Source: Escherichia phage vB_EcoS_IME542. From it: a stretch of DNA of 46,553 bases. Below the pieces are notes generated by a model that saw only the letters and a list, made by a program, of their open reading frames with translations, made no database searches and was not told where the DNA came from. Below, piece by piece: positions 525-44,048 of the stretch. Location of the stretch: the sequence record MK372342. The stretch is one strand, 5' to 3'. Numbering within the stretch: position 1 is the stretch's first letter; every line of letters begins with the position of its first letter. The position numbers and the translations under genes were made by a program.

Positions 525-1445
525 ACTATTCAATAAATCACTCGCTTTATATATCTTCTTCCTGATACCGCTCTTGAATGAGTATTCATCATTTGGTATT
601 ACCACGTCAACGTTCCTGTCATCCGCAACGCAAAGCAATTCCCTATCAAGCTTGCATGCCACTCTCAGCTTGTAGTTTCTAAGCGCATAAGCAACCATCT
701 CCATGTTGTAGCTAGAGTGGCAAACAAGCACACAGCGTTTGCCAGTAGCAAGATGAACGCGAACACCATCAATCCAATTATCGACCAGATAAGCGTACTC
801 ATCATCTTTAAAGGTGCCAATAACAGCAATAGACTGGCGAGTATAATCTTTTGCAGCATAACTAACACCCCCTTCTTCATTGATAAACATTACATTGCAC
901 ATTTCTTCTGATATGCCGTCACTATAAGCCATAAAGCACGGCACTGCGTGTATTAGTTCGCCTGATTTTGTCCTGCCAGCATCAAAACCAAACTCGCTAT
1001 AAATACCCTCGTATATGCTGAGTGGAGTAGATTCTACTCTCTCAGTCCTTTCCATTATCTCCAGGCATCTTTCGTGATCAATCTGTGCGCCCATTTTGTA
1101 GAGCTGGGTTCTTGATGCTTGCTTGTTTGCTTTAACTATAACCTCAATTGGTGTTAAGTTCAGCCAGTCACCAAGCAAATTTACTGAATCGGCGAAGGAC
1201 GATCCAGTGCACTTCATGACCCATCCTATACCGGAGTCACTTCCGCATTTCGAACAAACTGCCGCGCCATTTCCTTTTTCACTGCCTATTTCGTCGGTAA
1301 ATCTGAATCTGTCAGTGCCAAAGCAGTATGGGCATGGTCCGTGCTTCTTACTTAGGTGTCTATCATTCCAACCAAGTTCCTTTGCATAAAATGATTTCCA
1401 CAATCCGGCCATCTTAGGTATAACTTCATTCTTATCGTAATTCAT
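522..1445 (-). CDS. DNA primase (zinc-ribbon, phage/plasmid primase type)
   Basis: N-terminal CPYCFGTDRFRF...CSKCG zinc-ribbon motif typical of P4/T7-type primase Zn-binding domains; 307 aa. Confidence 0.6.
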   Translation of the reverse strand: MNYDKNEVIPKMAGLWKSFYAKELGWNDRHLSKKHGPCPYCFGTDRFRFTDEIGSEKGNGAAVCSKCGSDSGIGWVMKCTGSSFADSVNLLGDWLNLTPIEVIVKANKQASRTQLYKMGAQIDHERCLEIMERTERVESTPLSIYEGIYSEFGFDAGRTKSGELIHAVPCFMAYSDGISEEMCNVMFINEEGGVSYAAKDYTRQSIAVIGTFKDDEYAYLVDNWIDGVRVHLATGKRCVLVCHSSYNMEMVAYALRNYKLRVACKLDRELLCVADDRNVDVVIPNDEYSFKSGIRKKIYKASDLLNS

Positions 1446-1921
1446 TTGCTTAACCCGTGATTTTCGTGAAAGTTGTATTTTCTCTCTGCTTCAATTCTTA
1501 CTTTATACGCCTGCTCTGGAGTATCGAAGTTCCCAAGGTGTAGATGCTTGCCGTCAACCTTGATGTGAGCCTTAAATTTTCCGTGATTTAGCTTTGCCAC
1601 TCCACAATAACCATTTGTTGATAAAACGCTAAGCTTGCAATTTCTTGAGTTACCTTGATTTGTTGTTACTCTTAGGTTTTCTATTCTGTTATCTAATTTG
1701 TTATGGTTTATATGATCAATGTAGTCGCCATTTTGAAGCTCTCCATTAAACATCTCCCACACAACTCTATGTACATAAGTCCTAAAGCCATTAACAGACA
1801 CTTTGTAATAGCCAGATGTAGATAGTGAGTTGCACTCATCGCCAACCTTAACACGTCTTGCAGTGCTAATCTTCCAATGCAATTTGCCATCTACATAGTA
1901 AAAATAATCATGCCAGTTCAT
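1442..1921 (-). CDS. HNH homing endonuclease (HNH + AP2-like C-terminus), paralog 1 of 5
   Basis: MNWHDYFYY...DHINHNKLDNRIENLRV HNH motif; shares N- and C-terminal motifs with ORFs at 20312, 32960, 42296, 43536. Confidence 0.85.
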   Translation of the reverse strand: MNWHDYFYYVDGKLHWKISTARRVKVGDECNSLSTSGYYKVSVNGFRTYVHRVVWEMFNGELQNGDYIDHINHNKLDNRIENLRVTTNQGNSRNCKLSVLSTNGYCGVAKLNHGKFKAHIKVDGKHLHLGNFDTPEQAYKVRIEAERKYNFHENHGLSK

Positions 1922-1936
1922 TTTCTTCTCTCCAAT

Positions 1937-1966
1937 AAAAAAGGATGTACCGATTATGGCACATCC
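1937..1966 (-). terminator. terminator hairpin after HTH gene whose loop carries an extended -10-like TGcCATAAT for the downstream HNH gene
   Basis: Minus strand: GGATGT-gccataatcggt-ACATCC then TTTTTTATT. Confidence 0.5.
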
Positions 1967-1972
1967 AATTCC

Positions 1973-2446
1973 TTACTCTTTAGCTTTTCGTGCTGCTTCG
2001 TTGGCGGCTTTAATTTTTCGCCACGAACGACACTCTGGCTTAGTGGCCAGTTCAGCCTCTGTAACCACGCGCAGCATGTGACGCTTTTTGCAGCGCAGAG
2101 TTAGCGGCTTGCCATTGCCGTCGAATTGCAGGTCTGGTCGGCAGAATGTGGCTCGAAAGCCTTCTCCATTTCGCTTGTAGTAGTTGTGTGAAAGCTGAGC
2201 TCCACGTGCCGATATCATTCCGCGCTTAAACCATTCTTCTACAGCCTGCGGTGTCACCTTTAGCTGCTTTGCGATATTCGCCTTTGTGCCGAAGAAATCA
2301 AGAACAATCTCCAGTCGCGCGCGTAGCCCGGCTCTTACTTCATCTTTTAAAACGTAGTAACCCGATGGTCGTTTTCGTTGTTTTTTGTCTTCAGTGCGGA
2401 CAGTTCCGTTATTGCCGTTAATGGTTCGCTTATCAACTGCATTCAT
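1973..2446 (-). CDS. HTH DNA-binding protein (candidate transcription regulator)
   Basis: 157 aa, basic; helix-turn-helix-like segment ANIAKQLKVTPQAVEEWFKRG; GAGGTGA RBS. Confidence 0.45.
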   Translation of the reverse strand: MNAVDKRTINGNNGTVRTEDKKQRKRPSGYYVLKDEVRAGLRARLEIVLDFFGTKANIAKQLKVTPQAVEEWFKRGMISARGAQLSHNYYKRNGEGFRATFCRPDLQFDGNGKPLTLRCKKRHMLRVVTEAELATKPECRSWRKIKAANEAARKAKE

Positions 2447-6383: not shown

Positions 6384-7514
6384 ATGGCAACTGCAAAAAT
6401 AACCAACGAACAGCTTCGTGAAGAACTAGCGAGCGGCATGACTAACAAAGCAATAGCAGAGAAGTACGGTATGAATATTCGCAATGTTGAATTGCGTCGT
6501 AGTAAGCTAGCTAAGGCTGGAGATGGGCACGGTAGAGATGTAAGCAACCTTATTCCTCAAGGTTATGCAGTTAAGGGTGTATCAAGTCTTATTGGTGCTG
6601 ATGGTGAGATTAAGCAGCAGTGGGTTAAGTCTGACATCGACAAAGAGAAGCAAGAAGAGATGATGTTTCAGGCTATTGAAGCGCTTACTGATGAATTGCC
6701 GCGCGAGAAGCCTAGAGCATTAAGAGTTGGTTTGTGGGAAGACACTTTAAGTCTTTATCCTGTTTTTGATATGCACATTGGAGCAATGGCGCACCATGCA
6801 GAATGCGGGGAGAATTACAGTACTGAAATCGCAGAGCGTGTCCTTAATGATTATTTTGATTACGCTGTTGCTAAGGCTCCTTGTTCTAAGAAAGCAGTAT
6901 TGCTGATTGGTGGCGACTTCCTCCACTCAGATGGATTGGAAGCTGTTACGCCTACTAGTCATCATGTGCTGGACCAGGATAGCCGATACCATAAGCTTGT
7001 TTACGTAGCGGTTCGAGCGACTCGGCGAGCAATTAGCCGGATGCTTGATAAGCATAAAGAAGTTGAAGTTCAGATTATTCCAGGTAACCACGACCTTTCG
7101 GGTATGATTTGGTTGCGTGCAGCAATGGCGGCATTCTATATGGATGAGCCAAGGGTAAATGTTGATGCTTCACCTGCTGCGTTGCACGTAACTCAGTTTG
7201 GCAAGACGCTTCTTGGATACTGTCATGGTCATGAGCTTCGCAAGCCAGATACTCGCTTATCAACTTTGGCACGTGACCACCGCAAGGCGTTTGGTGAATC
7301 AGAATATGTTTATACCCATTCGGGCCATTATCACCATCAAACGATTACAGAAGGTAACTTGGGTATTGATGAGTCTCATGGTCAGCTTGGTGCGAAAGAT
7401 GCTTACAGCGCAAACGGTGGTTATCGCTCTTATCGCCAGGCGTCTGTAATAATCTACAGCCCTAAATTCGGCGAGATTGGTCGATTCACTTGTCGCCCAG
7501 AAATGTTTAGCTAA
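6384..7514 (+). CDS. calcineurin-like metallophosphoesterase with N-terminal HTH-like domain
   Basis: Motifs DMHIG, GGDFLHSDG, IPGNHDL, GHYHH; N-terminal MTNKAIAEKYGMNIRNVELRRSKL. Confidence 0.6.
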   Translation: MATAKITNEQLREELASGMTNKAIAEKYGMNIRNVELRRSKLAKAGDGHGRDVSNLIPQGYAVKGVSSLIGADGEIKQQWVKSDIDKEKQEEMMFQAIEALTDELPREKPRALRVGLWEDTLSLYPVFDMHIGAMAHHAECGENYSTEIAERVLNDYFDYAVAKAPCSKKAVLLIGGDFLHSDGLEAVTPTSHHVLDQDSRYHKLVYVAVRATRRAISRMLDKHKEVEVQIIPGNHDLSGMIWLRAAMAAFYMDEPRVNVDASPAALHVTQFGKTLLGYCHGHELRKPDTRLSTLARDHRKAFGESEYVYTHSGHYHHQTITEGNLGIDESHGQLGAKDAYSANGGYRSYRQASVIIYSPKFGEIGRFTCRPEMFS

Positions 7515-7572
7515 TAGCACTTTTTGCATAACCAATGCCGTAGAAATGCGGCATAATCACCGCATCGAAACT
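7515..7572 (+). promoter_or_regulatory. boxed promoter element (TAGCActtttTGCAT, hairpin TGCCG/CGGCA, CATAAT, CATCGAAAC)
   Basis: Read directly. Confidence 0.5.
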
Positions 7573-7598
7573 AGATAAACTAAACGAGTAAACACAAA

Positions 7599-7775
7599 AT
7601 GACTAAAATGATTTATTGCACCAAAAACAATTCCAAGACCCTGCCATTTACAGTCAACCAGCCGTACAATGCAGAGTACCAAGGTGACGGATATTACAAG
7701 ATTTACGGCGACGATATGACGTGGATTTTAGCGCCGATTGATGGTTCGTTAGTTGAATTTATTATCGCAGATTAA
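7599..7775 (+). CDS. hypothetical small protein (58 aa)
   Basis: Hand-translated MTKMIYCTKNNSKTLPFTVNQPYNAEYQGDGYYKIYGDDMTWILAPIDGSLVEFIIAD; follows boxed promoter. Confidence 0.4.
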   Translation: MTKMIYCTKNNSKTLPFTVNQPYNAEYQGDGYYKIYGDDMTWILAPIDGSLVEFIIAD

Positions 7776-7797
7776 CACATCAAAAACATAGATTTGC

Positions 7798-7828
7798 AAG
7801 CGGGGGGCCTTTTGGCTCCCCTTTTTTG
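7798..7828 (+). terminator. rho-independent terminator
   Basis: GC-rich hairpin GGGGGGCC-tttt-GGCTCCCC followed by TTTTTTGTG. Confidence 0.6.
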
Positions 7829-7903
7829 TGCTTACAATCCACACTTGCCTACTGTATTATATTTACACTATCTATTGACAAATTAGGATTTAAAGGTGAT
7901 CAC

Positions 7904-8119
7904 GTGAGGGAAGTAATTAACGCCGCTACGGCATCAACAGGTGGGGCGGCTGTAACTGGCGCCGCAACTGGTCAAATGACAATCGCAATAATCAGCCTTA
8001 TAGCTCTTGTTGTTTTCGGGTTGTGGGGAGCTTACTGGAAGTTTAAGGATAGCCAGGCAATCAGGAAGGCGCTGGAGTCAGGAGATTTAAAAAAAGCTAT
8101 CAATATTAGGAGTAAGTAA
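7904..8119 (+). CDS. holin, pinholin-like (GTG start at 7904; ATG at 7976 is an alternative)
   Basis: Gly/Ala-rich weakly hydrophobic segment then TM helix MTIAIISLIALVVFGLWGAYW and charged C-terminus; immediately upstream of SAR endolysin; track start TTG 7826 lies inside the terminator. Confidence 0.55.
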   Translation: MREVINAATASTGGAAVTGAATGQMTIAIISLIALVVFGLWGAYWKFKDSQAIRKALESGDLKKAINIRSK

Positions 8120-18676: not shown

Positions 18677-20251
18677 ATGACTGATGTTTTAGTTTGGGAG
18701 GAACTATCCCAATCAGAGAAACAGGCGATTAAGCTACTATCCACCCACAACTTCGAAACATTCCTTCGTGTGTGGTTCAGCATCACGCAAGGGCAGAAGT
18801 ATATAATGAACTGGCATCATAGATACCTATGCAGGATTGTTGATGAGATTATTAGCGGAGAGCGAAAGGATACAATCATAAATGTATCACCTGGCGCCGG
18901 AAAAACCGAAATCACGTCCATTCACTTTCCTGTTTATAGTTACCTCAAGCTACCAAAAGTTCGTAACCTTAGCCTGTCATTCTCTGATAGCCTGGTCAAG
19001 CGAAACTCTAAGCGAGTTAGGGACCTTATTAAATCAATGGAGTTCCAGGAGTTATTCCCAAGCAGGTTCGGTACGTGTAAGGATGACGAGATTCAGGTGC
19101 TTGATGAATCAGGAAAGGTTAGATTTGAGTCAATATCAAAGGCTATTGGAGGGCAAATAACCGGATCGAGAGGTGGTTACATTACGGATACTTATAGCGG
19201 CTGCCTGATGCTGGATGACGTTGATAAAGTTGATGACATGCTTAGCAAGGTGAGGCGTGAAGCAGTACATATGCTTCTAAAGAACACAATTCGCTCTCGT
19301 CGGGCAAGTTCGGTAAAAGGAAAAGCAACACCAATTATATCAATACAGCAGCGATTGCATGTGAACGATAGCTCGTGGTTCATGGCTGAATCTGGGGGTA
19401 TGGGTATAGATTTCGATGTTGTGAAGATTCCAGCGATAGTTACTGAGGATTACATCGACACGCTCCCTGACTGGCTAAAGCCACACTTCGAGGCTGATGT
19501 TCTATCTAGCGAGTACATCGAGCGAGATGGGGTTAAATACTACAGCTACTACCCACAGAAGGAATCCATTCATGATTTAATGGCAATGCAGGACGCGGAC
19601 CCATATACGTTCGCAAGCCAATATATGCAAAGCCCAATAGCTCTCGGTGGCAACATGATTGATACGGATTGGTTTATTCGTTACGGTGGGGATTTGCGAG
19701 CGCCATTAAAGTATGACTACCGATTCATCACTGCGGATACCGCGCTCACGACTAAGTCGTACAGTGACTTTAGCGTGTTCCAGTTGTGGGGCGTTAAGGA
19801 TAGAAAGCTATACCTTCTTGATATGGTTAGGGGTAAGTATGAGGCACCGGAACTCGAGGCAACACTATTGGACTTTGAGGCCAAAGCAAGAGCCACTAGT
19901 CGAGAGGAGGGGATACTTCGCAAGGTAATAATCGAGAAGAAAGCGTCAGGTATCGGCTTAATTCAATCTGCAAGTAGGGTTATGCGCACACCGATTGAGC
20001 CATTTATACCAGATACAGACAAGGTAACTCGCGTACTTTCTGCCATGCCTCAGATTAAGGCTGGCAATGTCATGATACCAGAGTCAGCGCCGTGGATGAG
20101 TGCACTCATCTCTGAGTTTTCAGCATTTACAGCAGACCTATCTCACCGCCATGATGACATTGTAGACACAACAACCATGGCAATAAACTGTGAGCTAAAT
20201 TTAGCCGACGATGCAAAACTAAGAATGCTGCGCCTTGCTGGGATTAAGTAG
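18677..20251 (+). CDS. terminase large subunit
   Basis: 524 aa; Walker A-like VSPGAGKTE, Walker B-like CLMLDDVDK; position before portal. Confidence 0.8.
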   Translation: MTDVLVWEELSQSEKQAIKLLSTHNFETFLRVWFSITQGQKYIMNWHHRYLCRIVDEIISGERKDTIINVSPGAGKTEITSIHFPVYSYLKLPKVRNLSLSFSDSLVKRNSKRVRDLIKSMEFQELFPSRFGTCKDDEIQVLDESGKVRFESISKAIGGQITGSRGGYITDTYSGCLMLDDVDKVDDMLSKVRREAVHMLLKNTIRSRRASSVKGKATPIISIQQRLHVNDSSWFMAESGGMGIDFDVVKIPAIVTEDYIDTLPDWLKPHFEADVLSSEYIERDGVKYYSYYPQKESIHDLMAMQDADPYTFASQYMQSPIALGGNMIDTDWFIRYGGDLRAPLKYDYRFITADTALTTKSYSDFSVFQLWGVKDRKLYLLDMVRGKYEAPELEATLLDFEAKARATSREEGILRKVIIEKKASGIGLIQSASRVMRTPIEPFIPDTDKVTRVLSAMPQIKAGNVMIPESAPWMSALISEFSAFTADLSHRHDDIVDTTTMAINCELNLADDAKLRMLRLAGIK

Positions 20252-20294
20252 CACTTTTTGTTAAAAGAATAACTCAAGGATGAGTTATCATAAT
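20249..20294 (+). promoter_or_regulatory. boxed promoter element in front of HNH gene (box TAGCActttttGTTA, hairpin ATAACTCA-agga-TGAGTTAT, CATAAT)
   Basis: Read directly; terminase stop TAG is the first three bases of the box. Confidence 0.5.
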
Positions 20295-20844: not shown

Positions 20845-20868
20845 AGCCCCACATGGGGCTTTTTTTAT
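20845..20868 (+). terminator. rho-independent terminator
   Basis: AGCCCC-acat-GGGGCT followed by TTTTTTT. Confidence 0.7.
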
Positions 20869-29906: not shown

Positions 29907-32888
29907 ATGGCAACAAATGAATTAGCCGGAATCACACTAGCCGTAGACGTCTCGCAGGTAGACAGAGGTACACAGTCCCTGCGGAAGTTCAGGCAGGCAA
30001 ACCAGCAGGCCGCTTCCGGCATTAGTGAGTTCGTCAACGCCGAGCAGGTTGCAAAGAATCAAGCCAGAGACACAGCTCGCGCACTGGCTGAACGGCAATC
30101 ATCTTTGGCTAAATTGCAAACGGCTATTGACCCAACTGCGGCAAAGTTCCGTAAACTCCAGGAGGCTGCTGTAGGTCTTGATAAGGCTTTCGCGGCTGGA
30201 GTAGTTCCTGATGAGGAGTTTTTCCGCTTAGGTGAGGCGCTTGAAACGCAGAACGCAAAACTTGCTCGTTCACGTGCGGCACTAACTGAAGAGGGTAGAG
30301 CGGCGGCGCAAGCTGCAAAGGATAAGGCAAAGGCAAAGGCTGAAGCGGATAGATTCATTGCATCACTTGAGCGTCAGGCTCAGGCGGCAACATTGACGCG
30401 AGAGGAGTACCTAAAGTTACAAGCGGCCCAGCTTGGCGTAAGTTCTCAGGCGGCGCCTATTATTGACAGAATCGCCGATGCATCACGGAAGGCAAACACC
30501 CAGCTAATTGCTCAGAGCAAGGCCTTTCAACGCTCTGGCTTAAGCGCAGGTCAATACAAGGCTGCAATCTCTCAATTGCCAGCGCAGATTACAGATATTG
30601 GGACATCACTTGCTGGCGGCATTCCGATTTGGCTTATTGCAATTCAGCAAGGTGGACAAATTAAGGATGCATTTGGAGGTATTGGTAACACATTTAGTTT
30701 TGCGCTTGCTGCTTTAAACCCGTTCAACGTAGCAGTTGGGGTTCTCGGTGGCGCGCTTGTTGCTTTAGGCGTCGGTGCTGCGCAGGCTGAAAGTGAATTC
30801 AGGGCGTTAAACTCCGCCATTGCGTTCTCAAACAACTCCACAATCGCATCAATCTCGCAGGTTAGAGAGTTGGTTAGCTCTGTTTCTGATGCCACTGGTG
30901 CAACCAGAGGACTTGTGACTAGCATCGCAACAAGCCTTGTTGAGCAAGGAAACCTTACGCTAACGCAGATTGACAAGATTACTAAATCAACAGCCAGATG
31001 GGCTCAGTTGACAGGTAAGGATGCAAAGGAAATTACTGGTTACTATAACCAGATTGCGAGCGACCCAATTCAAGGACTTGCTGATTTAGACAAGAGGTTT
31101 AACTTCCTTACACAGGGGCAGTTAACAACAATTGAAAGATTGAGAGAGACTAGGGGTGAGGTTGAAGCCGTAACTGCTGCTATTGATATATTTAGCAAAT
31201 CACAAGAGGCAAACCTTAACGATATTGCAGCCCAGCTTACTCCTCTTGAATTGGCCTGGAATGACTTCAGGAAGTACATATCTGATGTATGGGATGCAAT
31301 TAGTCGCAGAACGGTTGGGGCGCTAAACCTGTTTGTTGACGTAATCGCCGGAACAATTGAGCAAATTAGGGTCTTCATCAACCAGGGTGATGTGCTGATT
31401 GGTGAATTCGTAATTAGCGCAACACAGGCACTGCAGAACATCCCCGGCCTTGATGGTGTTGGTGATGATGTTGTCAAGGGACAGCAGAAGATTATCGATG
31501 CCGCTAAGAAGCAAAACATTGAGCTAGAGAAGTCTATCAAGGAGCGCGATGCCAGAATCAGAGAAGGAGAACTTGGCTACGTTACTCGCAGAGAAAATCA
31601 GAATACCAATGAGCAGTCAGGCACGGATGAGGAGTTTGCAAAAAGGAAGAAAGCGCTTCAGGATGAACTTGATGCGATCAAGAAGAGCAGGAAAGAAGAA
31701 AATGGTAGGGTTAAAGAGCAAAGAGACCTTACAATTGGTTACGAATCTGGCGTACTTGCACTACAGGCACAACTCAAGGTGCTTCAGGAAAACAGGGATA
31801 TTGGCGCAGTAATAAGCAATGAGCGCAAGCAGTATCTTCAGGAGGTTGCAAAATTCCAGATTCTTGAGCAAAGGCAGCGTGATGGCTCAATAAAAAAAGA
31901 GCAAGCAAGACTTATTCTCGAGAAAGATAAAGTTCTGGAACTAGCAAGGCAGAAAGCTGAACTTGGCGATCAGATTGTTTTGCAGGAAAGAGCTAATAAG
32001 TTAGCTGAGGATAACAGGAAGAAGATTCTTCAGATCAACAACGAAGCAAATAACATTGGTTTTGGCGCCGGATTATCATCTCGTGAGCAGCAGAGAGCCA
32101 GAGAGATTCAGTCGCTTCAGTCCAATCAGTTAAACAAAGGTGGCTCTGTAGATGACACTGATTTTCAGGCTTTACTCGAAGCAAGGCGTAATTTCTATGC
32201 TCAAGAGGATGCGCTACGTGAAAACTGGCTTGCTGGCGTGAATCAATCCTTTGCTAACTGGGCTGAAAGCGCTACAGATGCTTTCTCAATTGCCGGAAGT
32301 TTAACCACTAAGGTATTTGAAGGCATTACTGACCAGATTACTGACCTTGTAACCACTGGAGAAACAAACTTCAGGGAGTTTACTGTAAACATACTCAAGC
32401 AGATTGCAAGAATTGCAACTCAGCTTCTTATTGTTAAGGCTATCGAGTCTAGCTTAAGTAGCTTTGGTGGTACTGGTGGCGCGATTGGGTCTATCGCATC
32501 TGCGATTGGCGGTGGCTTTGCTAGCGGCGGTTACACTGGAGACGGTGGAAAATATCAACCAGCAGGCACTGTACATAAGGGGGAGTTTGTATTCACAAAA
32601 GAAGCAACAAGCAGGATTGGTGTTAAAAACCTTTACGCATTGATGAGAGGTTACGCAAATGGCGGTGTTGTAGGCGGGCCTTCGGGCTATGCAAATGGCG
32701 GCTTGGTTTCTGGTGGTGCAGATGTTAATGTTAGCGGAATAACCGTTAACGTTAATAGTGGGATTGGAAGCGACCCGGAACAGGCCAAGGCGCTGCAAAA
32801 TGGCGTTAAGGCAATTGTAGCAGAAGAGATTGCTCAGTCTTTCCAGCAGGGCGGCAGAGCATTTGCTTATTTGAGAGGTTTCAACTAA
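29907..32888 (+). CDS. tail tape measure protein
   Basis: 993 aa, long alpha-helical Ala/Gln/Glu-rich N-terminal half, Gly-rich C-terminus; position after G/GT. Confidence 0.85.
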   Translation: MATNELAGITLAVDVSQVDRGTQSLRKFRQANQQAASGISEFVNAEQVAKNQARDTARALAERQSSLAKLQTAIDPTAAKFRKLQEAAVGLDKAFAAGVVPDEEFFRLGEALETQNAKLARSRAALTEEGRAAAQAAKDKAKAKAEADRFIASLERQAQAATLTREEYLKLQAAQLGVSSQAAPIIDRIADASRKANTQLIAQSKAFQRSGLSAGQYKAAISQLPAQITDIGTSLAGGIPIWLIAIQQGGQIKDAFGGIGNTFSFALAALNPFNVAVGVLGGALVALGVGAAQAESEFRALNSAIAFSNNSTIASISQVRELVSSVSDATGATRGLVTSIATSLVEQGNLTLTQIDKITKSTARWAQLTGKDAKEITGYYNQIASDPIQGLADLDKRFNFLTQGQLTTIERLRETRGEVEAVTAAIDIFSKSQEANLNDIAAQLTPLELAWNDFRKYISDVWDAISRRTVGALNLFVDVIAGTIEQIRVFINQGDVLIGEFVISATQALQNIPGLDGVGDDVVKGQQKIIDAAKKQNIELEKSIKERDARIREGELGYVTRRENQNTNEQSGTDEEFAKRKKALQDELDAIKKSRKEENGRVKEQRDLTIGYESGVLALQAQLKVLQENRDIGAVISNERKQYLQEVAKFQILEQRQRDGSIKKEQARLILEKDKVLELARQKAELGDQIVLQERANKLAEDNRKKILQINNEANNIGFGAGLSSREQQRAREIQSLQSNQLNKGGSVDDTDFQALLEARRNFYAQEDALRENWLAGVNQSFANWAESATDAFSIAGSLTTKVFEGITDQITDLVTTGETNFREFTVNILKQIARIATQLLIVKAIESSLSSFGGTGGAIGSIASAIGGGFASGGYTGDGGKYQPAGTVHKGEFVFTKEATSRIGVKNLYALMRGYANGGVVGGPSGYANGGLVSGGADVNVSGITVNVNSGIGSDPEQAKALQNGVKAIVAEEIAQSFQQGGRAFAYLRGFN

Positions 32889-32931
32889 TAGCACAAAATG
32901 GTAAAGCCAAAAGGATTTGGCTTGCTATAAT
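32889..32931 (+). promoter_or_regulatory. boxed promoter element in front of HNH gene (box TAGCAcaaaaTGGTA, hairpin AGCCAAA-agga-TTTGGCT, extended -10 TGcTATAAT)
   Basis: Read directly. Confidence 0.55.
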
Positions 32932-33782: not shown

Positions 33783-33786
33783 ACTA

Positions 33787-33810
33787 AGCCCCATTAGGGG
33801 CTTTTTTTAT
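33787..33810 (+). terminator. rho-independent terminator-like hairpin
   Basis: AGCCCC-atta-GGGGCT followed by TTTTTTT. Confidence 0.6.
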
Positions 33811-33821
33811 TGGAGAAAATC

Positions 33822-34577: not shown

Positions 34578-34590
34578 GAGGGATTTATTA

Positions 34591-35902: not shown

Positions 35903-35908
35903 ATATCA

Positions 35909-35933
35909 TACCCGCCTAGTGCGGGTTTTTTAT
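35909..35933 (+). terminator. rho-independent terminator-like hairpin
   Basis: CCCGC-ctagt-GCGGG followed by TTTTTT. Confidence 0.6.
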
Positions 35934-35943
35934 TTAGTGTAGA

Positions 35944-38900
35944 ATGGCACAAATGATCAAAACAAACATGAGGCTTTGTGATATGGCTGAAGAAATTAAG
36001 ATTTATGGTGCCAAAGGCGGTAGCCAGAAGCAGCATCAACCAGTGGAGCAGGAAGATAACCTAATTTCACTTAACAAGGTTAAGGTATTACTTGCGGTTG
36101 CTGACGGAGAGGTGGACCCTAACTTCTCATTGAAGGATTTATACCTTGCTGATGTTCCAGTGCAAAATCAGAATGGCACCTACAACTATGAAGGTGTTCG
36201 CGCCGAGTTTCGCGCTGGTACGCAATATCAGGACTATATCGCTGGGCTTGACGGTGCGAACTCAGAGATTCAGGCTTCCAGGGAAATTACGAACGATACC
36301 CCGTACATCATTGCGGTTAATAACAGCCAGCTTTCGGCGATTCGAGTTAAACTCTTTTGGCCTCGACTGATCAAACAAGAAAGTAACGGAGACCTGAATG
36401 GCACAACTTGCGAGTATGCAATTGACTTGTCAGTTAATGGTGGGGCATATCAGCAATATACTCGCGGAGTTGCAAACGGGAAAACAACAACTGGTTACGA
36501 CCGTAGCATACGTGTAAACCTTCCCGCTGAATTTGATAGTGCGCTGGTTCGCATCCGTAAGATTACAGCAGACTCAACAAGTAGCACGCTGGTTAATGGA
36601 ATGCAGATTACAACCTATCAGGAAGTAATTGACGCTAAATTCCGCTATCCGCTTACTGCTCTGGTTTACGTTGAGTTCGGCTCTGACCTGTTCCCTAACG
36701 GAATCCCAACAATCTCTATCAAGAAGCGATGGAAGTTAATTCAGGTCCCAACAAACTATAACCCTGAAAGCAGAACTTACAGCGGCACATGGAATGGTTT
36801 ATTTAAAATGGCGTGGTCAAATAACCCAGCATGGGTTCTTTATGACTTAGTGACAAACCGCAGATATGGACTTGACCAGCGAGAGTTAGGTGTAGAGATT
36901 GATAAGTGGGGCTTGTATGAAGCTGCACAATTCTGCGACCAGATGGTTCCAGATGGTAAAGGTGGAATGGAACCTCGTTATCTTTGCGATATGGTTGTAC
37001 AGAATAAGGTTGAGGCATACACACTAATTCGTGATGTCTGCTCAATATTCCGCGGCCTGACATTCTATGATGGCGAAAAGATTGGCATCGTAGTTGATAA
37101 GCCTCGCAATCCATCTTACATCTTCACGAACGATAACGTTGTAAATGGATTATTCAGCCGCACATTCGCTAGCGAAAAGAGTCTTTACACTACTGCGAAC
37201 GTACAGTTTGATGATGTGGAGAATAACTATCAGCAAGATGTAGAGCCGGTATTTGAATTAGAGGCAACCCGCCGCTTTGGATTTAACCCTGTTGATTTAA
37301 CTGCTATTGGCTGCACTCGCAGAAGTGAAGCAAACAGGCGCGGAAGATGGCTTCTAAAAACCAACCTGAGAAGCGAAACTATCAGCTTCACAACTGGGTT
37401 AGAAGGTATGATTCCGATGATTGGCGAGGTTATTGCGGTTAATGACGCAGCATGGTCGAGCAACTATCAGTTAAACCTTTCTGGTCGAATCGAATCTGTG
37501 CAAGGATTGCAGGTTTTTACTCCGTTTAAAGTTGATGCAGCACCTGGTGACAGAATCCTGCTTAACAAACCGGACGGTAGCCCAGAGGCTAGAACTATCG
37601 CAAGCGTATCTGAAGATGGTAGAACTATTAACCTGAACACGGCGTTCAGTTTTGTAGCTCAGCAAGATACTGTTTTCGCAATCGACAAGGACAATCTGGC
37701 ACTTCAGCAATATGTTGTGACTGGTATTCAAAAAGCAGATACTGATGGTCAGGACTCGTTCCAGTACACAATTACTGCTGTTGAGTACGACCCGAACAAA
37801 TATGACGAGATTGACTACGGAGTTAACATTATAGACCGCCCTACTTCAATTGTAGAACCTGACAGATTGTCGCCACCTGAGAACTTAACAGTATCAAGCT
37901 ACAGCAAGGTTGTTCAGGGTTTATCGGTTGAGACGATGGTAATAGGGTGGGACAAAGCGCCATACGCTAAAACATACAATGTTCAGTGGAGGAAAGAGAA
38001 TGGTAACTGGATTAACGTACCCAGAACAGCTAGCACAGAAGTTGATATTGAAGGTATTTACGCAGGAATCTATGACGTTAGGGTTCGCAGCGTATCAGAT
38101 ACTGAAAACGTCTCTGCCTGGTCTGATATTGTAACTGTATCGCTAACTGGCAAGATTGGTCGCCCATCTGCGCCAACCGTTATTACTGCTTCAACTGATG
38201 AGGTGTTTGGCATTCGTGTTAAATGGGGATTCCCTGAAGGCTCAGGCGACACAGCTTACACTGAACTTCAGCAAGTTGCTGATAACGGTGACGGTACTTA
38301 CAACCCTGATAACGCGAGCTTGCTGACGCTGCTTCCTTATCCAGCCTATGAATACTGGCACACGCCAATTCAGCCAGGCAAGGTTATCTGGTATCGTGCA
38401 AGATTAATTGACAGAATCGGCAACACCTCTGACTGGTCTGATTTCGCTAGAGGTATGAGCACTGACGATGCCAACATTATCAACGAATATATCAAAGTTG
38501 ACATTGAAGGTTCGGAAGGATTCAAATATCTCGAACAGAATGCGATTCAAAAGAATCAGGACATTCAGAATCAGGCTGAGGCAATCATCGAGAACGCATT
38601 AGCAAATGACACTGATGTTCGCCGCATGACAAAGGAGAATGGTGCCAGAAAGGCTGAATACGTTCAGGCGGTGAATCTTATTGCTGATGAAACTCAGGCG
38701 CGCGTAGAGGCTCTCACGCAGCTTAAAGCGCAGATTGATGGTGAGGTTGTAGCTTCCATAACTGAGGTTCAGACGGCACTAGCCACCGAAACAGAAGCAA
38801 GGACCACTGCCGATACTGCTTTGAGAGCTCAGCTTGGAGATACTCAGGCTGCACTTAATGAAAAACTTGACTCATGGGTTGATGCGGAATCCGCTGGCGC

Positions 38901-39372
38901 TCAGTACGGTGTTAAGTTAGGTCTAAAATATAATGGGGTTGAGTATAGCGCAGGGATGAGCATGGAGCTTGTTGGCAGTGGTACTGGCGTTAAGAGTCAG
39001 TTCATCTTTGACGCAAACAGATTCGCTATCAGTAACGGGATTGGATCTGGTTCCGGTCAGTGGTCATTGCCTTTTGTTGTTGAGAGCAACCAGGTGTTCA
39101 TCCAGAGCGCCGTGATCAAGGATGGATCAATCACTAATGCCAAGATTGGTAACAGAATTCAATCAAATAACTACGTTCAAGGAAGTCAGGGGTGGGCTAT
39201 TGATAAATCTGGTTTTGCTGAACTAAGTAATGCCACCGTTAGAGGAAGCCTTTACGCTAACAATGGTAACTTCGCGTTTAACGGAACAGGCAACACTGTT
39301 CAGATTAACGGTAACGGAATCACTGTTAACCTACCAGGTGGAGGAATGGTTGTAGTTGGAGTATGGAGTTAA
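35944..39372 (+). CDS. central tail fiber / host specificity protein, lambda gpJ-like
   Basis: 1142 aa; recognisable gpJ segments (SGTWNGLFKMAWSNNPAWVLYDLVTNRRYG, IDKWGLYEAAQFCDQMVPDGKGGMEPRY, RRGRWLLKTNL). Confidence 0.85.
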   Translation: MAQMIKTNMRLCDMAEEIKIYGAKGGSQKQHQPVEQEDNLISLNKVKVLLAVADGEVDPNFSLKDLYLADVPVQNQNGTYNYEGVRAEFRAGTQYQDYIAGLDGANSEIQASREITNDTPYIIAVNNSQLSAIRVKLFWPRLIKQESNGDLNGTTCEYAIDLSVNGGAYQQYTRGVANGKTTTGYDRSIRVNLPAEFDSALVRIRKITADSTSSTLVNGMQITTYQEVIDAKFRYPLTALVYVEFGSDLFPNGIPTISIKKRWKLIQVPTNYNPESRTYSGTWNGLFKMAWSNNPAWVLYDLVTNRRYGLDQRELGVEIDKWGLYEAAQFCDQMVPDGKGGMEPRYLCDMVVQNKVEAYTLIRDVCSIFRGLTFYDGEKIGIVVDKPRNPSYIFTNDNVVNGLFSRTFASEKSLYTTANVQFDDVENNYQQDVEPVFELEATRRFGFNPVDLTAIGCTRRSEANRRGRWLLKTNLRSETISFTTGLEGMIPMIGEVIAVNDAAWSSNYQLNLSGRIESVQGLQVFTPFKVDAAPGDRILLNKPDGSPEARTIASVSEDGRTINLNTAFSFVAQQDTVFAIDKDNLALQQYVVTGIQKADTDGQDSFQYTITAVEYDPNKYDEIDYGVNIIDRPTSIVEPDRLSPPENLTVSSYSKVVQGLSVETMVIGWDKAPYAKTYNVQWRKENGNWINVPRTASTEVDIEGIYAGIYDVRVRSVSDTENVSAWSDIVTVSLTGKIGRPSAPTVITASTDEVFGIRVKWGFPEGSGDTAYTELQQVADNGDGTYNPDNASLLTLLPYPAYEYWHTPIQPGKVIWYRARLIDRIGNTSDWSDFARGMSTDDANIINEYIKVDIEGSEGFKYLEQNAIQKNQDIQNQAEAIIENALANDTDVRRMTKENGARKAEYVQAVNLIADETQARVEALTQLKAQIDGEVVASITEVQTALATETEARTTADTALRAQLGDTQAALNEKLDSWVDAESAGAQYGVKLGLKYNGVEYSAGMSMELVGSGTGVKSQFIFDANRFAISNGIGSGSGQWSLPFVVESNQVFIQSAVIKDGSITNAKIGNRIQSNNYVQGSQGWAIDKSGFAELSNATVRGSLYANNGNFAFNGTGNTVQINGNGITVNLPGGGMVVVGVWS

Positions 39373-39377
39373 AATAT

Positions 39378-39400
39378 AGCCCCCTTCTGGGGGCTTTTTT
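39378..39400. terminator. terminator hairpin between convergent J gene and minus-strand RBP gene
   Basis: AGCCCCC-ttct-GGGGGCT followed by TTTTTT. Confidence 0.65.
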
Positions 39401-40370
39401 AGTACATGTTTGGTATGTACGGTAACCGCATTGAGATGTTGGTGTTGAATGGGAACCGCGCGCCAGACTGCGTTGAGTAGTTACCATAAACACTTCCTTT
39501 ATGCGCCCTAACCTGACCATTTGACATTGCAACGCCCTTGTATCTAAGGTTGTTGTATCTACCAGTAACCTCAACCATCGCGCCGCACCTTAGTATTGGG
39601 AAAAACCCATTACCTATTGATTGGTATGAGTTGGAAAGCTGGAGGAATCCACTTAGTACAAAAGGTCGCTTGACGCTGGAAAACACTATCTGGCCAGAGG
39701 CGTTTGACATTGTTAAACCAGGCCCTGCGGTTGGTGCTGTATTGTTGAATATAACAAGATCGATAGTTACTGATGCTGATACATTATCAATTCCTGTGTA
39801 GGTATTGTTTCTACATAGTATTCTTTTCCCGTCAAACTCAAGGGTGACATTTGGGTTATTCCACCTTCCAAACGGTATTCCAGTCATCGGGAGTGTATAG
39901 CTTCCATTCACAGTCACAGTTCCGACATACTGAGCAGTCAGGAGTCTACTGTTTGATGTTATTGCAGTGAAGTTAGTCGAATCACTGACAAATATCCCCT
40001 CACTGCCTGGTGATTCACCAAGAACCTCAAAACCTTGCGCACCAAATCCAATCAAACGTCCTGATGAGCCGTTAAAGTTACCTATACTTATCCTTCCAGT
40101 TGAGTTATTGACCCTGGAAAATCCATTCATGAAATAAACCTCAGGTATGAAGTTGAAGTCATAAACGTCAATAGCCTTTGTCGGCAATATGAAGGCCTCA
40201 GATCCTTGAGTCATTGTTAGTCCGAAGTCTCTAGTGCCATTGGCGGAATTAAACGTGGAGTTACTGCTAAGGCTTCCTGTTACTGATGGCGCTCTTAAAC
40301 CTGCAGTTATCTCCATTCTCGGTCTTCCGTCATTCAAGTCTATCAAGATACCCTGAGGCATTATTTCCAC
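39399..40370 (-). CDS. putative receptor-binding protein (antisense, downstream of J)
   Basis: 323 aa Asn/Ser/Thr/Gly-rich protein; co-transcribed with upstream lipoprotein gene; call is by position and composition. Confidence 0.45.
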
Positions 40371-40591
40371 TCCTTGGTGCCATGATCTTTAACTGATCCA
40401 GAGAAGTTTTTGATACCATCCCAGCGGATATCTGTTTCACCTGAAGCTACAACTACACCTCCTTTCCATTTAGCAACACATGAGCCGTTAACTTCAGTCG
40501 CGCACCAACCGTCAGGTCGGGGTCCGGAAGAACAACCTACAGTCATGATTACTGCTGCCGCGATTATTGCTGATTTGATGAAGTTAGTCAT
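40361..40591 (-). CDS. small lipoprotein, candidate superinfection-exclusion (Cor/Llp-like) protein
   Basis: [22 protein letters not shown] signal peptide with lipobox; 76 aa; AAGGA RBS; boxed promoter upstream. Confidence 0.5.
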
Positions 40592-40609
40592 TTTGTATTC
40601 CTTAGTGAG

Positions 40610-40675
40610 TGTGTTTCGTTTCGATGGAGTAACTATAGCAAAGGATGATTACGGAGTCTTTAGCTATTCGTGCTA
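40610..40675 (-). promoter_or_regulatory. boxed promoter element (box TAGCAcgaatAGCTA, extended -10 TGcTATAGT, CATCGAAACGAAACAC)
   Basis: Read directly on minus strand. Confidence 0.55.
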
Positions 40676-40752
40676 TTGTATACGCGTAACCGATGTAACT
40701 CGGTGTATACAATCTCGTCCGCGGAAAATGGTATACGCGCTGTTACGCCTAG

Positions 40753-40835
40753 TTACGCATTAGTTACATTAAAATATCTATATATATCAACCTTTTACTC
40801 TTATTATTATTATTATTATATATTACTGTGTATAT
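40753..40835 (+). repeat. copy B of ~85 bp direct repeat with (TTA)5, in second divergent non-coding region; flanked by GTATAC-containing repeats
   Basis: TTACGCATTAGTTACATTAAAATATCTATATATATCAACCTTTTACTC(TTA)n; matches 13550..13635. Confidence 0.7.
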
Positions 40836-40986
40836 CATGTAACTACTTCTATAGAGTGTTCCGGTTATAATTTTAATATCATGTGGATTTATACAGTATT
40901 GCGCGGCAGCTATACCGATGCACCCTTAGCGAGAAACGGTATACACGATATACACACTAGTTACATTAAGCTATATCTGGGCCGAG

Positions 40987-41334
40987 ATGCCAGAAAGCGT
41001 AACCATTGGCAATGTCTACACGAAATTACAAGGATTCACGCGTAAGTATGAGTCAACGATTGGCAAAACCAATTGGACTAGCTACCGTGCCGAATATATA
41101 GTTAACCCATCGAAAGCAAACAACCAGAGAGATAGAGAAATGACCTACTACATTATCAAAGAGAAAAACAACGCACTGTTCGGCGATTGCTACTTTGGTG
41201 GCCCTGCTGGATACACAACGGATAAAAACGAGGCTGACAGATTCGAGACCAAAGAAGAAGCCCGCGATGTTCTGACCGGGTGCTTCACTGAAGAAGATTT
41301 GAAATCTGTTAAGGTAGTTAAGGTTAAGGAATAA
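40987..41334 (+). CDS. hypothetical protein (alternative start ATG 41140 with purine-rich RBS)
   Basis: 115 aa ORF; no good RBS at 40987. Confidence 0.4.
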   Translation: MPESVTIGNVYTKLQGFTRKYESTIGKTNWTSYRAEYIVNPSKANNQRDREMTYYIIKEKNNALFGDCYFGGPAGYTTDKNEADRFETKEEARDVLTGCFTEEDLKSVKVVKVKE

Positions 41335-41337
41335 AAT

Positions 41338-42309
41338 ATGGGCTTTAAAGTTTTTACGCGAGAGGAGTTAAGCAGCGAGTCTTACCACTCTGAGACTGAT
41401 CACATCTCTGGCAGTTCACTTGTCGAGATTATCCAGGGTTCTCCAGCTAAGTGGAAGTTCAAGCAGCGAAACAATGATAGTAAGGCGCTTAAGTTTGGCA
41501 CTTTATCTCACTGTATGATTCTAGAACAAGATGTGTTCGATAAAGAGTACTTGCGAGCAACCGACCTTGATGCGATTGATGGTTTAATTACAAGTCAGAC
41601 AGCATTATCGGCAGCACTTAAAAAAGTTGGTGTAGCTGGCACGTCAGGGAAGGGGTATAGCGAGCTTGTAGAGATGATGTATCGCTCTGGTGAGGATTGG
41701 AGTGTTAAATGGTTAATTGAGCAGCAGGAGAGCGCCCAAGCGCTTGTGGAGGGTAAGGAGCTGGTTAGCGCAGCAGACTATGACGAAGTGGTCGCCATGC
41801 GTGAGGTTCTTTGCAATATTCCGGCATATAATAAAATCGTGAATAGCGAAACGGCGCAGAAAGAGTTATCAATATTTGGTGAGATTCTCGGTGTAGGAGT
41901 GAAGATTCGAATAGACCACGTAGATGTAATTGATGGAGTTGTATGCATTACAGACCTGAAGACGACAGCCAGCGCATCACCTCAGGAGTTTGGGAGGCTT
42001 GCATTCAAGCACGGGTATCTCGCAAAAATGGCCCTTCAGCACGATGTTTTCGTCAGGGCTTTTAACGAGAAAAGAAGAACAAAAGTAAGGTTACTTGCAA
42101 TCGAGAAAGAGGCACCTTACTTACCAATGCTTTACAATATTACAGAAGAGCAACTGAAGGTTGGTCGTAGAATGTATCTAGAGGCCCTTGCAACTTACAA
42201 GAAGTGCAAAGAGAATGATGTGTGGCCCGGATATGCGATGGGTGCAACAGAGATTGATTTAGATGTACCTGAGTGGGATATGAGGAAATACAGAGATGAA
42301 CTGGTCTGA
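41338..42309 (+). CDS. recombination exonuclease, PD-(D/E)XK type (putative)
   Basis: IDHVDVIDGVVCITDLKTT resembles D...(D/E)xK nuclease core; located next to Erf-like and SSB genes. Confidence 0.5.
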   Translation: MGFKVFTREELSSESYHSETDHISGSSLVEIIQGSPAKWKFKQRNNDSKALKFGTLSHCMILEQDVFDKEYLRATDLDAIDGLITSQTALSAALKKVGVAGTSGKGYSELVEMMYRSGEDWSVKWLIEQQESAQALVEGKELVSAADYDEVVAMREVLCNIPAYNKIVNSETAQKELSIFGEILGVGVKIRIDHVDVIDGVVCITDLKTTASASPQEFGRLAFKHGYLAKMALQHDVFVRAFNEKRRTKVRLLAIEKEAPYLPMLYNITEEQLKVGRRMYLEALATYKKCKENDVWPGYAMGATEIDLDVPEWDMRKYRDELV

Positions 42310-42787
42310 AATTTTTGATTACGATGGGGTTAATTTGATATGGAAGATAATGAGCGGAACTAGAGGTTGCATTGGTAAAGTTGCTGGAAATGTAAGTAAG
42401 ACTAACGGTTATGTAAGGTTGAGGTACGATGGCAGGGAGCACAAGGTTCACAGAATTATATTGGATATCGTAAATGGTAAAATACCTAGTGGTTTATTTG
42501 TTGATCACATAAATCACATTAGAAATGATAACAGGATTGAGAACTTGCGATTGGTGAATAGGCAAGGAAATGCCATGAATCAGTCATTGAGAAAAACAAA
42601 CAAAACCGGAGTTCTGGGTGTTAGTTGGGTGCCAAGGCTATCAAAATATGTAGCAAGAATGGGTGTGGATGGTTACGAGTATCACATTGGGTGTTTTGAC
42701 TCAATCGAGGAAGCCGCTAGAGCAAGAAAAAGCGAAGAGGTTAAGTTGGGATTTCATAGAAATCACGGAAATAGCACAAATTGCTAA
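42296..42787 (+). CDS. HNH homing endonuclease, paralog 4 of 5
   Basis: MNWSEIFDYDGVNLIWKIM..., VDHINHIRNDNRIENLRLVN, C-terminal GFHRNHGN; overlaps end of exonuclease gene by 14 nt. Confidence 0.85.
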   Translation: MNWSEIFDYDGVNLIWKIMSGTRGCIGKVAGNVSKTNGYVRLRYDGREHKVHRIILDIVNGKIPSGLFVDHINHIRNDNRIENLRLVNRQGNAMNQSLRKTNKTGVLGVSWVPRLSKYVARMGVDGYEYHIGCFDSIEEAARARKSEEVKLGFHRNHGNSTNC

Positions 42788-42843
42788 AACAACAATGGAT
42801 AGCTCAGGTATAGTTATCCCATCAAAAACGAACGAGGTTAAAG

Positions 42844-43494
42844 ATGCAAATTTCAGAATCATGCAAATCAATTTTAAACGCGCTACACACTGCAAAAGCA
42901 ATGTTTGCAAAGGCTGAGCGCTCTAAGCAGAACTCGCACCTTAAAAACAAGTATGCAACCTTAGATGATGTTTTAGCAGCCGTTGAGCCTGGTTTGGATG
43001 AGTGTGGTTTGGTTATGTTTCAAAGCGTCCTAGATGACGAGCAAACTAATAGAATGAAGGTTGAGACAAAGCTATTTCATGCTGAGTCAGGAGAGTGGGT
43101 TAGCTTCTTAATGATTGTCCCAATCAGCAAGAATGACGCTCAAGGTTACGGCTCTGCTCTTACATATGCTAGACGCTACGGCATTACAGCAGCTTTAGGT
43201 CTTAGTCAGGCAGATGACGATGGCAATCTCGCAGCTAAAGGTGTTAAAGACTTCAAGCGCGAGCTAGAGAAGTGCAACACGCTTGATGAGTTACGTAAAG
43301 TCTGGAAAGAGGCCAAGCAATCACTAGACGCGGCGGGATGGAAGGTTTTCGAACCTCACATTATCGAGCGCAAGGCAGAGATTGAAGCCAATGCAGCAAC
43401 TGGATTCAACCCAGCAACACCAAAGAAAGTTGCAGAAAAAAGTGGTGCTGACGAAAAGGTTGAAGTAGAATCACAACAAATCGACACATTCTAA
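42844..43494 (+). CDS. erf: Erf-like single-strand annealing protein
   Basis: KNKYATLDDVL and GYGSALTYARRYGITAALGL parallel P22 Erf KYKYRSCEDIL and GATSSYARKYCLNGLFGI. Confidence 0.65.
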   Translation: MQISESCKSILNALHTAKAMFAKAERSKQNSHLKNKYATLDDVLAAVEPGLDECGLVMFQSVLDDEQTNRMKVETKLFHAESGEWVSFLMIVPISKNDAQGYGSALTYARRYGITAALGLSQADDDGNLAAKGVKDFKRELEKCNTLDELRKVWKEAKQSLDAAGWKVFEPHIIERKAEIEANAATGFNPATPKKVAEKSGADEKVEVESQQIDTF

Positions 43495-43535
43495 ATAAAA
43501 CGGGGCTTATGCCCCAACAAAACAGAGAGAAAAGA

Positions 43536-44048
43536 ATGAATGGTAAGAATTTGAGCTTTGAATACTTATCTAAGTTATTCAAAATAGATTCAGATGGAAA
43601 CCTTTGCAGGAGATTCGCGGTAAAAAAGGCTAAGGCCGGATTAGTTGTAGGAAAGCCGGATCATCTTGGTTATATGTCAATATACCAAGACAATAAAAGA
43701 CTAAAAGTGCATCGCATTGCATATTGCGTTAACTCTGGAGAGGATTTGCTAGGTAGCTTTGAGATTGATCATATTGATGGTAATCCATCAAACAACAACG
43801 TTGCAAATTTAAGGAAATGCAATAGGGTAGAAAACCAACAAAACAGTGGTGCCAATAAAAATAATTCACTTGGATATAAAGGTGTTTGCTTACACAAGAA
43901 AACAGGAAAGTACTTCGGTAGATGGATGTACAATAGAAAGTTTTACTCAACAAAGTATCACCTGCTACCTATAGATGCGTACAATGAGTTGTTGGATATA
44001 AAATCAAAGTTTAAATCCGAATTTATAAACGGAGAGGAAATGAAATGA
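43536..44048 (+). CDS. HNH homing endonuclease, paralog 5 of 5 (divergent)
   Basis: EIDHIDGNPSNNNVANLRKCNRVEN; ATG 43536 with purine-rich RBS preferred over track 43509. Confidence 0.75.
   Translation: MNGKNLSFEYLSKLFKIDSDGNLCRRFAVKKAKAGLVVGKPDHLGYMSIYQDNKRLKVHRIAYCVNSGEDLLGSFEIDHIDGNPSNNNVANLRKCNRVENQQNSGANKNNSLGYKGVCLHKKTGKYFGRWMYNRKFYSTKYHLLPIDAYNELLDIKSKFKSEFINGEEMK

Follow-up and report, generated by a model that had tools for sequence, protein, structure and literature searches.

Five HNH genes of phage vB_EcoS_IME542

Escherichia phage vB_EcoS_IME542 (sequence record MK372342), the type species of Christensenvirus, is represented here by a stretch of 46,553 nucleotides, which we refer to in its whole length as the window. 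It carries five genes, termed H1 to H5, that are candidates for free-standing homing endonuclease genes of the HNH type. A first-pass annotation had located five such genes and placed four of them between named neighbours, and both statements hold: all five open reading frames (ORFs) are present, and all five products match Pfam HNH_3 (PF13392; 35.9-77.9 bits, E 6e-9 to 4e-22, above the gathering cut-off of 24.8) as well as PHROG 99 ('HNH endonuclease'; E 7e-39 to 1e-59). A hidden Markov model (HMM) built from the five proteins and run against the six-frame translation of the window returned only these five, the next match having an E value of 1, so that no sixth copy was found.

H1 (1442-1921, minus strand, 159 amino acids) is located between the gene of a Cro-like regulator (1973-2446) and the primase gene (522-1445); this pair, a Cro-like regulator and a primase zinc ribbon, had not been named in the first-pass annotation. 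H2 (20312-20836, plus strand, 174 amino acids), assigned to the HNH_3 plus AP2 type, lies between the genes encoding the large terminase subunit TerL (18677-20251) and the portal protein (20881-22137), and H3 (32960-33430, plus strand, 156 amino acids) between the tape measure gene (29907-32888) and the gpM-like minor tail gene (33432-33782). H4 (42296-42787, plus strand, 163 amino acids) separates a PDDEXK exonuclease gene (41338-42309), whose end it indeed overlaps by 14 nucleotides, from erf (42844-43494). H5 (43536-44048, plus strand, 170 amino acids), a divergent HNH_3 member, is flanked by erf and ssb (44045-44473), the product of the latter having no Pfam match and matching PHROG 44 (E 9e-29). 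The five positions had been described as module boundaries, which is loosely worded: they are gene boundaries, but they lie inside the packaging, tail, recombination and replication modules.

For H5, the ORF finder extends the frame to an ATG at 43509. This start was rejected, as the ATG lies within a hairpin after erf and phage TR1 has a stop codon in the extension. The start at 43536 is preferred, because it has the same ribosome-binding context and position as the ssb start in HNH-free alleles.

The five proteins share 24-45% pairwise identity. The N-terminal MNW motif ascribed to four of them is present in H1, H3 and H4, whereas H2 begins with MIKRTEIYDIAIDY. Likewise, the HNH core and the C-terminal motifs are shared in outline, but H3 has NNNISNIRL in place of DNRIENLR and the C-terminus of H1 reads NFHENHG. 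All five genes are below the genome mean G+C content of 0.436. Compared with the non-HNH 500-nucleotide windows of the genome, H3 is markedly AT-rich (G+C content 0.340, z = -3.4), as had been pointed out, but H5 is equally so (0.347, z = -3.1). We therefore rejected AT-richness as a sign of a recent acquisition of H3, since it is a trait of the family that is common to H5.

To describe the architecture of the proteins, relatives of H2 were collected and aligned, yielding a 79-sequence alignment that includes all five proteins of the window. Residues H60, D78, H79, N91 and N103 (H2 numbering) are invariant in this alignment, and the conserved catalytic and metal-binding residues (D-H, N and N) are intact in all five window copies. 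A C-terminal H-x-N-H-G motif (H164, N166, H167 and G168, H2 numbering), which follows the AP2 helix, is near-invariant across the 79 family members and absent from H5. An AlphaFold2 model of H2 computed on this alignment (predicted local distance difference test score, pLDDT, 92.7; predicted template modelling score, pTM, 0.81) comprises the HNH core followed by three strands and a long helix, and it matches I-HmuI plus AP2 domains. Thus, the modelled H2 displays the beta-beta-alpha-metal fold of I-HmuI, including the DNA-binding sheet at the N-terminus, and at its C-terminus the three-stranded sheet and helix of an AP2/ERF domain. Pfam AP2 was detected in 26 of the 79 family members. The designation HNH-AP2, proposed for the whole set, is accordingly correct for H2 by virtue of the model. 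For H1, H3, H4 and H5 it is plausible by alignment to H2 and the family, so that an AP2-type C-terminal DNA-binding domain may well be present in most or all of the five products.

Insertion sites, cassette transfer and residence

The insertion junctions are clean when compared with HNH-free alleles. H1 is inserted directly after the T-run of the terminator of the Cro-like regulator gene, and its stop codon overlaps the start codon of the primase gene (ATGA). H2 carries its own AAGGAGG ribosome-binding site; an intrinsic terminator hairpin (20845..20860, plus strand) that lies downstream of it and precedes the portal gene is common to HNH-free alleles, which places H2 between the TerL stop codon and that terminator. 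Where HNH-free alleles have only a short hairpin between the tape measure gene and the gpM gene, the window has H3 in its place. The H4 insertion replaces the last three codons of the exonuclease gene (KEI* to RDELV*), and the last six codons of H4 together with its stop codon are ancestral intergenic sequence. H5 employs what in HNH-free alleles is the ribosome-binding site of ssb, and the stop codon of H5 and the start codon of ssb overlap in an ATGA. As regards the setting for expression, the coupling to the following gene is tight in H1, H3 and H5, and H4 overlaps the gene upstream.

Occupancy of the sites was surveyed in the window and nine full relatives, in each of which the members of the HNH family and 22 landmark genes were located. 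Site A (primase/regulator) is occupied in four of the ten genomes, namely the window, CEB_EC3a, TR1 and, by a divergent HNH gene, TR2, whereas H1 is absent from IME253, ZL19, 12210III, T145P1, BEK6 and phiEB49. Site B (TerL/portal) is filled in the window alone (1/10), site C (tape measure/gpM) in the window, IME253, TR1 and phiEB49 (4/10), the HNH protein of phiEB49 being more distant (48% amino acid identity). An HNH gene is found at site D (exonuclease/erf) in the window, TR1 and TR2 (3/10; 56% amino acid identity for TR2) and at site E (erf/ssb) in the window and TR1 (2/10). Phage vB_EcoS-12210III, which represents 43 near-identical records (MK9072xx), is empty at all five sites. Conversely, five more junctions are filled in relatives and empty here: TerS/TerL, gpI/gpJ, the junction of the major capsid protein gene with the next gene, a position near the major tail gene, and one upstream of a gene for a 115-amino-acid protein. 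Hence, HNH-free alleles are common among the relatives at all five sites, although four of the five genes are found in matching positions in TR1, with amino acid identities to the window of 100% for H1, 99.4% for H3, 99.4% for H4 and 98% over a truncated ORF for H5. The situation that the first-pass annotation would have counted against recent mobility, close relatives with the genes in place and no HNH-free alleles, is therefore not the one observed.

Larger collections were scanned as well. H4 and H5 are held together by only one of the 183 records of the phage collection that match the recombination module, and TR1 has the sole other copy of H5 in that collection. More than 80% of a TerL-H2-portal query was covered in three of 841 records; none of the nine relatives has H2, which is likewise missing in nearly all 841 records with the TerL/portal junction. 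Weaker DNA matches to the H3 cassette were obtained in ACG-M12 and Rtp (rtp40), which do not imply positional correspondence. A scan of IMG/VR with the ERF protein yielded six loci, all of them copies of phages already in the survey.

As a separate observation at site D, T145P1 contains an insert of about 550 nucleotides between exo and erf (22407-22954) that does not match the HMM of the HNH family; some other element may occupy the site in this phage.

Recent lateral movement is seen in H1 and H3. At the nucleotide level H1 is at least 98.5% identical (98.5-100%) over its full length and at the same site in TR1, DTL, CEB_EC3a, RobRod40, phiA2-1 and AugustePiccard, several of which show only about 80-83% identity to the window elsewhere. 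In the comparison with CEB_EC3a, H1 and about 250 nucleotides of the 5' end of the primase gene are 98-100% identical, and the flanks about 70-90%. Similarly, H3 is 96-100% identical to IME253 within flanks of about 80%, and the H3 cassette is 97-99.8% identical at the nucleotide level in TR1, IME253 and phiA2-1. These islands of identity are a better sign of mobility than the AT-richness discussed above.

The best non-clonal relatives of H2, H3 and H4 occupy the same site in other phages. The five genes had been called paralogous; they do belong to one HNH family, yet they are not duplicates that arose within this genome. We rejected intragenomic duplication on the grounds that the copies are far less similar to each other than to same-site genes in other phages (48-100% identity). 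The low identity among the copies therefore points to separate site-specific lineages rather than recent duplicates.

Taken together, the evidence makes it very probable that all five are free-standing genes for homing endonucleases of the I-HmuI-like HNH_3 class and that each represents a lineage of its own, bound to a single intergenic site of T1-like phages. This reading is built on the domain architecture, the catalytic residues, the exact junctions, the presence/absence polymorphism, the near-identical cassettes in diverged backgrounds and a decaying sister copy. HNH-containing and HNH-free alleles occur at each of the five sites, and together with the islands at H1 and H3 they support the homing interpretation put forward in the first-pass annotation.

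Several observations weigh against this reading. The positional homologues of H2 (L016 and L018; 72% and 61% amino acid identity) have diverged about as much as their flanks, so that the cassette is more alike than its surroundings for H1 and H3 but not for H2; the pattern of H2 suggests that this gene has long been inherited vertically and has not moved recently. As H4 and H5 are shared only with TR1 and within a block that is identical anyway, their distribution is neutral as to an independent mobility of these two genes. For no site did we find an HNH-free allele with near-identical flanks, and the cleavage targets are thus not readable from the alleles. As to the C-terminal domain, the structure model covers H2 only. 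A Pfam search at default thresholds gave no AP2 match in any of the five proteins: H2, H4 and H5 reach 15.6-16.5 bits (E 0.011-0.021) against the AP2 cut-off of 33.3 (PF00847), and H1 and H3 have no Pfam AP2 match even at E <= 10.

Some of these points would equally be expected if the genes were inherited relics, i.e. past invaders that are now fixed as inactive or decaying passengers and spread vertically or in large blocks, with no current homing. That H2 has diverged in step with its flanks fits this explanation, as does the fact that H3, H4, H5 and H1 are common to the window and TR1 only within one identical block of 16.6 kb. In addition, the H5 gene of TR1 (TR1 19633-20088) contains a premature stop: a C-to-A change, equivalent to window position 43591, turns codon 19 from TCA into TAA, and what is annotated in TR1 is an N-terminally truncated remnant of 124 amino acids, whereas the window copy is intact. 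Such a nonsense codon is a stage of decay expected of a fixed selfish gene. However, the catalytic residues have been retained in all five copies of the window, and H1 and H3 cassettes that are 97-100% identical across phages with flanks of about 80-90% require a recent transfer of cassette size. We therefore regard purely inherited relics as an improbable account, though the most serious of the alternatives to homing genes.

A considerably less probable explanation is a domesticated role, with H2 serving packaging as a cofactor in the manner of the HNH proteins that accompany HK97-type terminases, or with the whole set serving as general nucleases or exclusion weapons against competitors. Its appeal lies in the position of H2 immediately behind TerL and ahead of the shared terminator, by which it would be co-transcribed with TerL, in the HNH genes that three relatives carry between TerS and TerL, TR1 among them, and in the two copies within the recombination module. 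Yet the near-complete absence of H2 from the relatives and from the records with this junction implies that it is not essential for packaging, and the packaging of T1-like phages is of the headful pac type (PMC11447400). Moreover, the architecture is that of an I-HmuI-like HNH_3 protein with an AP2 domain. Of the 79 family members, only one matches, and that weakly, the Pfam model PF01844, which we take to cover the short HNH proteins associated with terminases.

A repeat at the edge of HNH cassettes

The heptamer ATAGCAC occurs 15 times in the window, compared with 6.1 expected occurrences. It is the head of a 21-nucleotide repeat, aaATAGCACnnnTTGnTAAAA, which is followed about 30 nucleotides later by a TATAAT-like box and often then by CATCGAAACGA. 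The 15 copies are located at 459, 5187, 7515, 14939, 15673, 16313, 20249, 28873, 32889 and 42772 on the plus strand and at 11000, 11770, 12914, 13285 and 40675 on the minus strand, and most of them begin at the stop codon of the upstream gene. The repeat has been reported for TLS, T1, Rtp and Rogue1, with its function listed as an open question (PMC11447400).

Three of the copies adjoin HNH genes. At its 5' end, the H2 insertion begins with the copy at 20246..20266 (plus strand), placed at the stop codon of TerL; the HNH-free TerL/portal alleles of 12210III, BEK6 and TR1 have no such copy. Correspondingly, the H3 insertion begins at its 5' end with the copy at 32886..32906 (plus strand), behind which stands TGCTATAAT, an extended -10-like box; at the tape measure/gpM site, the repeat is confined to HNH-containing alleles. 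Both H2 and H3 thus come with a repeat of their own and with a -10-like box. The copy at 42769..42789 (plus strand), upstream of erf, is found in HNH-containing and HNH-free alleles alike, and its 5' edge is the exact end point of the H4 insertion. Of the 23 HNH genes in the ten genomes, 12 have a repeat immediately upstream and a further three have one immediately downstream, counts that are not independent because orthologous copies are included; for comparison, with 13-20 repeats per genome of about 70-78 genes, roughly 20% of the genes are estimated to be preceded by one. A scan of the region from 18 to 34 kb with the sigma-70 consensus returned 27 promoter-like sites as against 27.4 in shuffled sequence, a chance level, and we therefore report the link between repeat and HNH genes as an association and not as a demonstrated promoter.

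The TerL/portal slot also holds the repeat in IME253 (14428-14915), CEB_EC3a (7244-7706), ZL19 (8215-8702) and T145P1 (2117-2624). It is followed there by an ORF of 110-118 amino acids, annotated as 'virion structural protein' in IME253 and CEB_EC3a and as hypothetical in ZL19, and not by an HNH gene; in T145P1, which is unannotated, there is the repeat and a gap of similar size. This junction therefore accepts different repeat-led cassettes. Tentatively, and with the counts above and the alleles of the TerL/portal and tape measure/gpM sites in favour, the ATAGCACnnnTTGnTAAAA repeat may be a portable expression or regulatory module that moves as the 5' edge of HNH and other small cassettes, and its copies might in addition provide homology patches for reaching new intergenic sites, an idea that we hold to be possible but doubtful. 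If it were true, repeat-led movement would explain how one HNH family came to be present at at least ten gene junctions in this group of phages.

The AP2-like fold and the close association of the genes with this regulatory-looking repeat could also mean that the products are AP2-type DNA-binding regulators of neighbouring genes rather than nucleases, which we consider very unlikely, given that the nuclease motif is invariant across the family and that genes which are present in some genomes, absent from others and transferred as cassettes behave like selfish elements and not like core regulators.

Mosaic genome, proposed homing and comparison with known systems

The genes reside in a genome of the T1-like group. 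Megablast comparison of 25 kb of the window with 50,697 phage records gave matches to T1-like coliphages only (Drexlerviridae, Braunvirinae), at about 82-85% identity, and the gene order is that of IME253, CEB_EC3a, ZL19 and TR1. Since both ends of the window are contiguous in TR1, it is taken as a complete, circularly permuted genome of 46,553 bp that was cut within the tail-fibre gene. Separately, a contig of 1.6 kb from the SRA that includes H2 is 99.6% identical to the window throughout, and it is therefore assigned to the same phage.

Relationships along the genome were mapped by a 250-nucleotide sliding comparison and by fine alignments against relatives. Judged from these comparisons, the genome is a mosaic drawn from at least three sources. 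Identity to IME253/ZL19 is 100% over the segment 28,700-31,899, in which the tail chaperones are encoded together with the 5' two-thirds of the tape measure protein. The segment from 31,899 to 46,553, continuing across the window end from 1 to about 1,970, is about 99.7% identical to TR1, with 51 differences over 16.6 kb, and holds H3, H4, H5 and H1. Its right end is at most about 50 nucleotides upstream of the H1 start. On the left, the block begins with a crossover at about 31899, where the 100% identity to IME253/ZL19 stops; this point is 1.06 kb before H3 and within the tape measure gene, making that gene a chimera. A further segment, 7,750-8,500, is 99% identical to TR1, and the remainder of the genome is 60-90% identical to all relatives compared.

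In the course of the mapping, two regions outside the HNH loci were recorded. The stretch 23750-25250 is without a DNA match in the nine relatives. It contains an ORF (24120-25163) for a head-decoration-like product of 347 amino acids (PHROG 9703, E 2.5e-100), situated in a variable slot between the scaffold and major capsid genes, which is filled in BEK6 and phiEB49 by a different gene of about 230 amino acids. The early-region stretch 13500-14500 is almost without a DNA match in the nine relatives, T145P1 giving a partial match at one edge only, and its ORF 13889-14407 (172 amino acids) matches PHROG 4841, which has no known function.

If the five genes are homing endonuclease genes as proposed, their spread may be envisaged as follows, on the model of established phage homing endonucleases such as I-HmuI, which nicks one strand, and the Seg and Mob enzymes of T4. 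In a mixed infection, the enzyme would bind a long target near its own insertion point in the genome of a relative that lacks the gene, and would nick or cut it. The break would then be repaired by recombination against the HNH-carrying genome, whereby the HNH cassette and a stretch of flanking sequence would be copied in. The carrier genome would be protected, because the insertion and the linked adjacent substitutions would alter the target. Cleavage activity, target sequences and homing itself are what we infer here by analogy.

With respect to known systems, the model of H2 resembles I-HmuI of phage SPO1 (PDB 1u3e) in HNH class and fold. Whereas I-HmuI is encoded within a group I intron and carries a helix-turn-helix domain at its C-terminus, the genes of the window are free-standing and, at least in H2, have an AP2-type C-terminus. 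They are closer in arrangement to the HNH-AP2 family of phages, cyanobacteria and protists (Magnani et al. as cited in PMC10448857), including the 'IPA-HNH' proteins of ICP1, whose members combine an N-terminal HNH with a C-terminal AP2 domain and, as here, are encoded by free-standing genes beside essential phage genes. However, the HNH domains of the ICP1 proteins are too divergent for Pfam HNH_3 (PMC10448857), whereas the five proteins of the window match it strongly. For a packaging HNH protein of the HK97 gp74 type, a conserved and obligatory place beside the terminase would be expected in related phages, which is not what was found for H2.

HNH-AP2 homing endonuclease genes, their siting beside essential genes and 'HEG islands' (homing endonuclease gene islands) of high identity have been described (Barth, Dunham & Seed 2023, PMC10448857). 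Such islands are tracts of more than 10 kb of near-identity between diverged phages that are bounded by homing genes. The 16.6-kb block shared with TR1, with its right end at H1, is reminiscent of them, but its left breakpoint is in the tape measure gene, about 1 kb from H3. As the block is a single pairwise example, the resemblance is suggestive only.

The HNH genes annotated in TR1 and IME542 (Christensenvirus), CEB_EC3a, DTL and IME253 are the same genes at the same sites, and that of Rtp (rtp40) may belong with them. TR1 differs in that it is without H2, as are the records of the phage collection searched, and has an HNH gene between TerS and TerL instead. The TR1 paper compares its proteins with those of vB_EcoS_IME542 and gives 100% for an HNH protein, 100% for the primase, 99.39% and 99.36% for two further HNH proteins and 98.26% for a 115-amino-acid protein; our own comparison of TR1 with the window gave the same values. 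Accordingly, TR1 already had HNH endonuclease annotations for four of the five genes and, as judged from the table of that paper, so did IME542 for at least H1, H3 and H4. Homing endonuclease 'infestation' of coliphage genomes and the attendant gene conversion are routinely noted in the literature as well. The finding is thus not new; it is a well-known phage pattern, here confirmed and mapped in detail, and it leaves the current understanding of homing endonucleases unchanged. One modest new point is that H2 and H3 bring along a copy of the repeat that is missing from HNH-free alleles, and the link between HNH cassettes and the repeat is a testable lead on a question that is open in the T1-phage literature.

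For the annotation of these phages, the five genes are to be read as selfish inserts that stand outside the packaging, tail and recombination machinery, and they are, together with the adjoining sequence, best excluded from phylogenies of T1-like phages. In a small genome, they provide an example of homing genes that accompany mosaicism, with one breakpoint of the mosaic at the edge of an HNH gene and with cassettes of 0.5-0.8 kb that are near-identical across genera.

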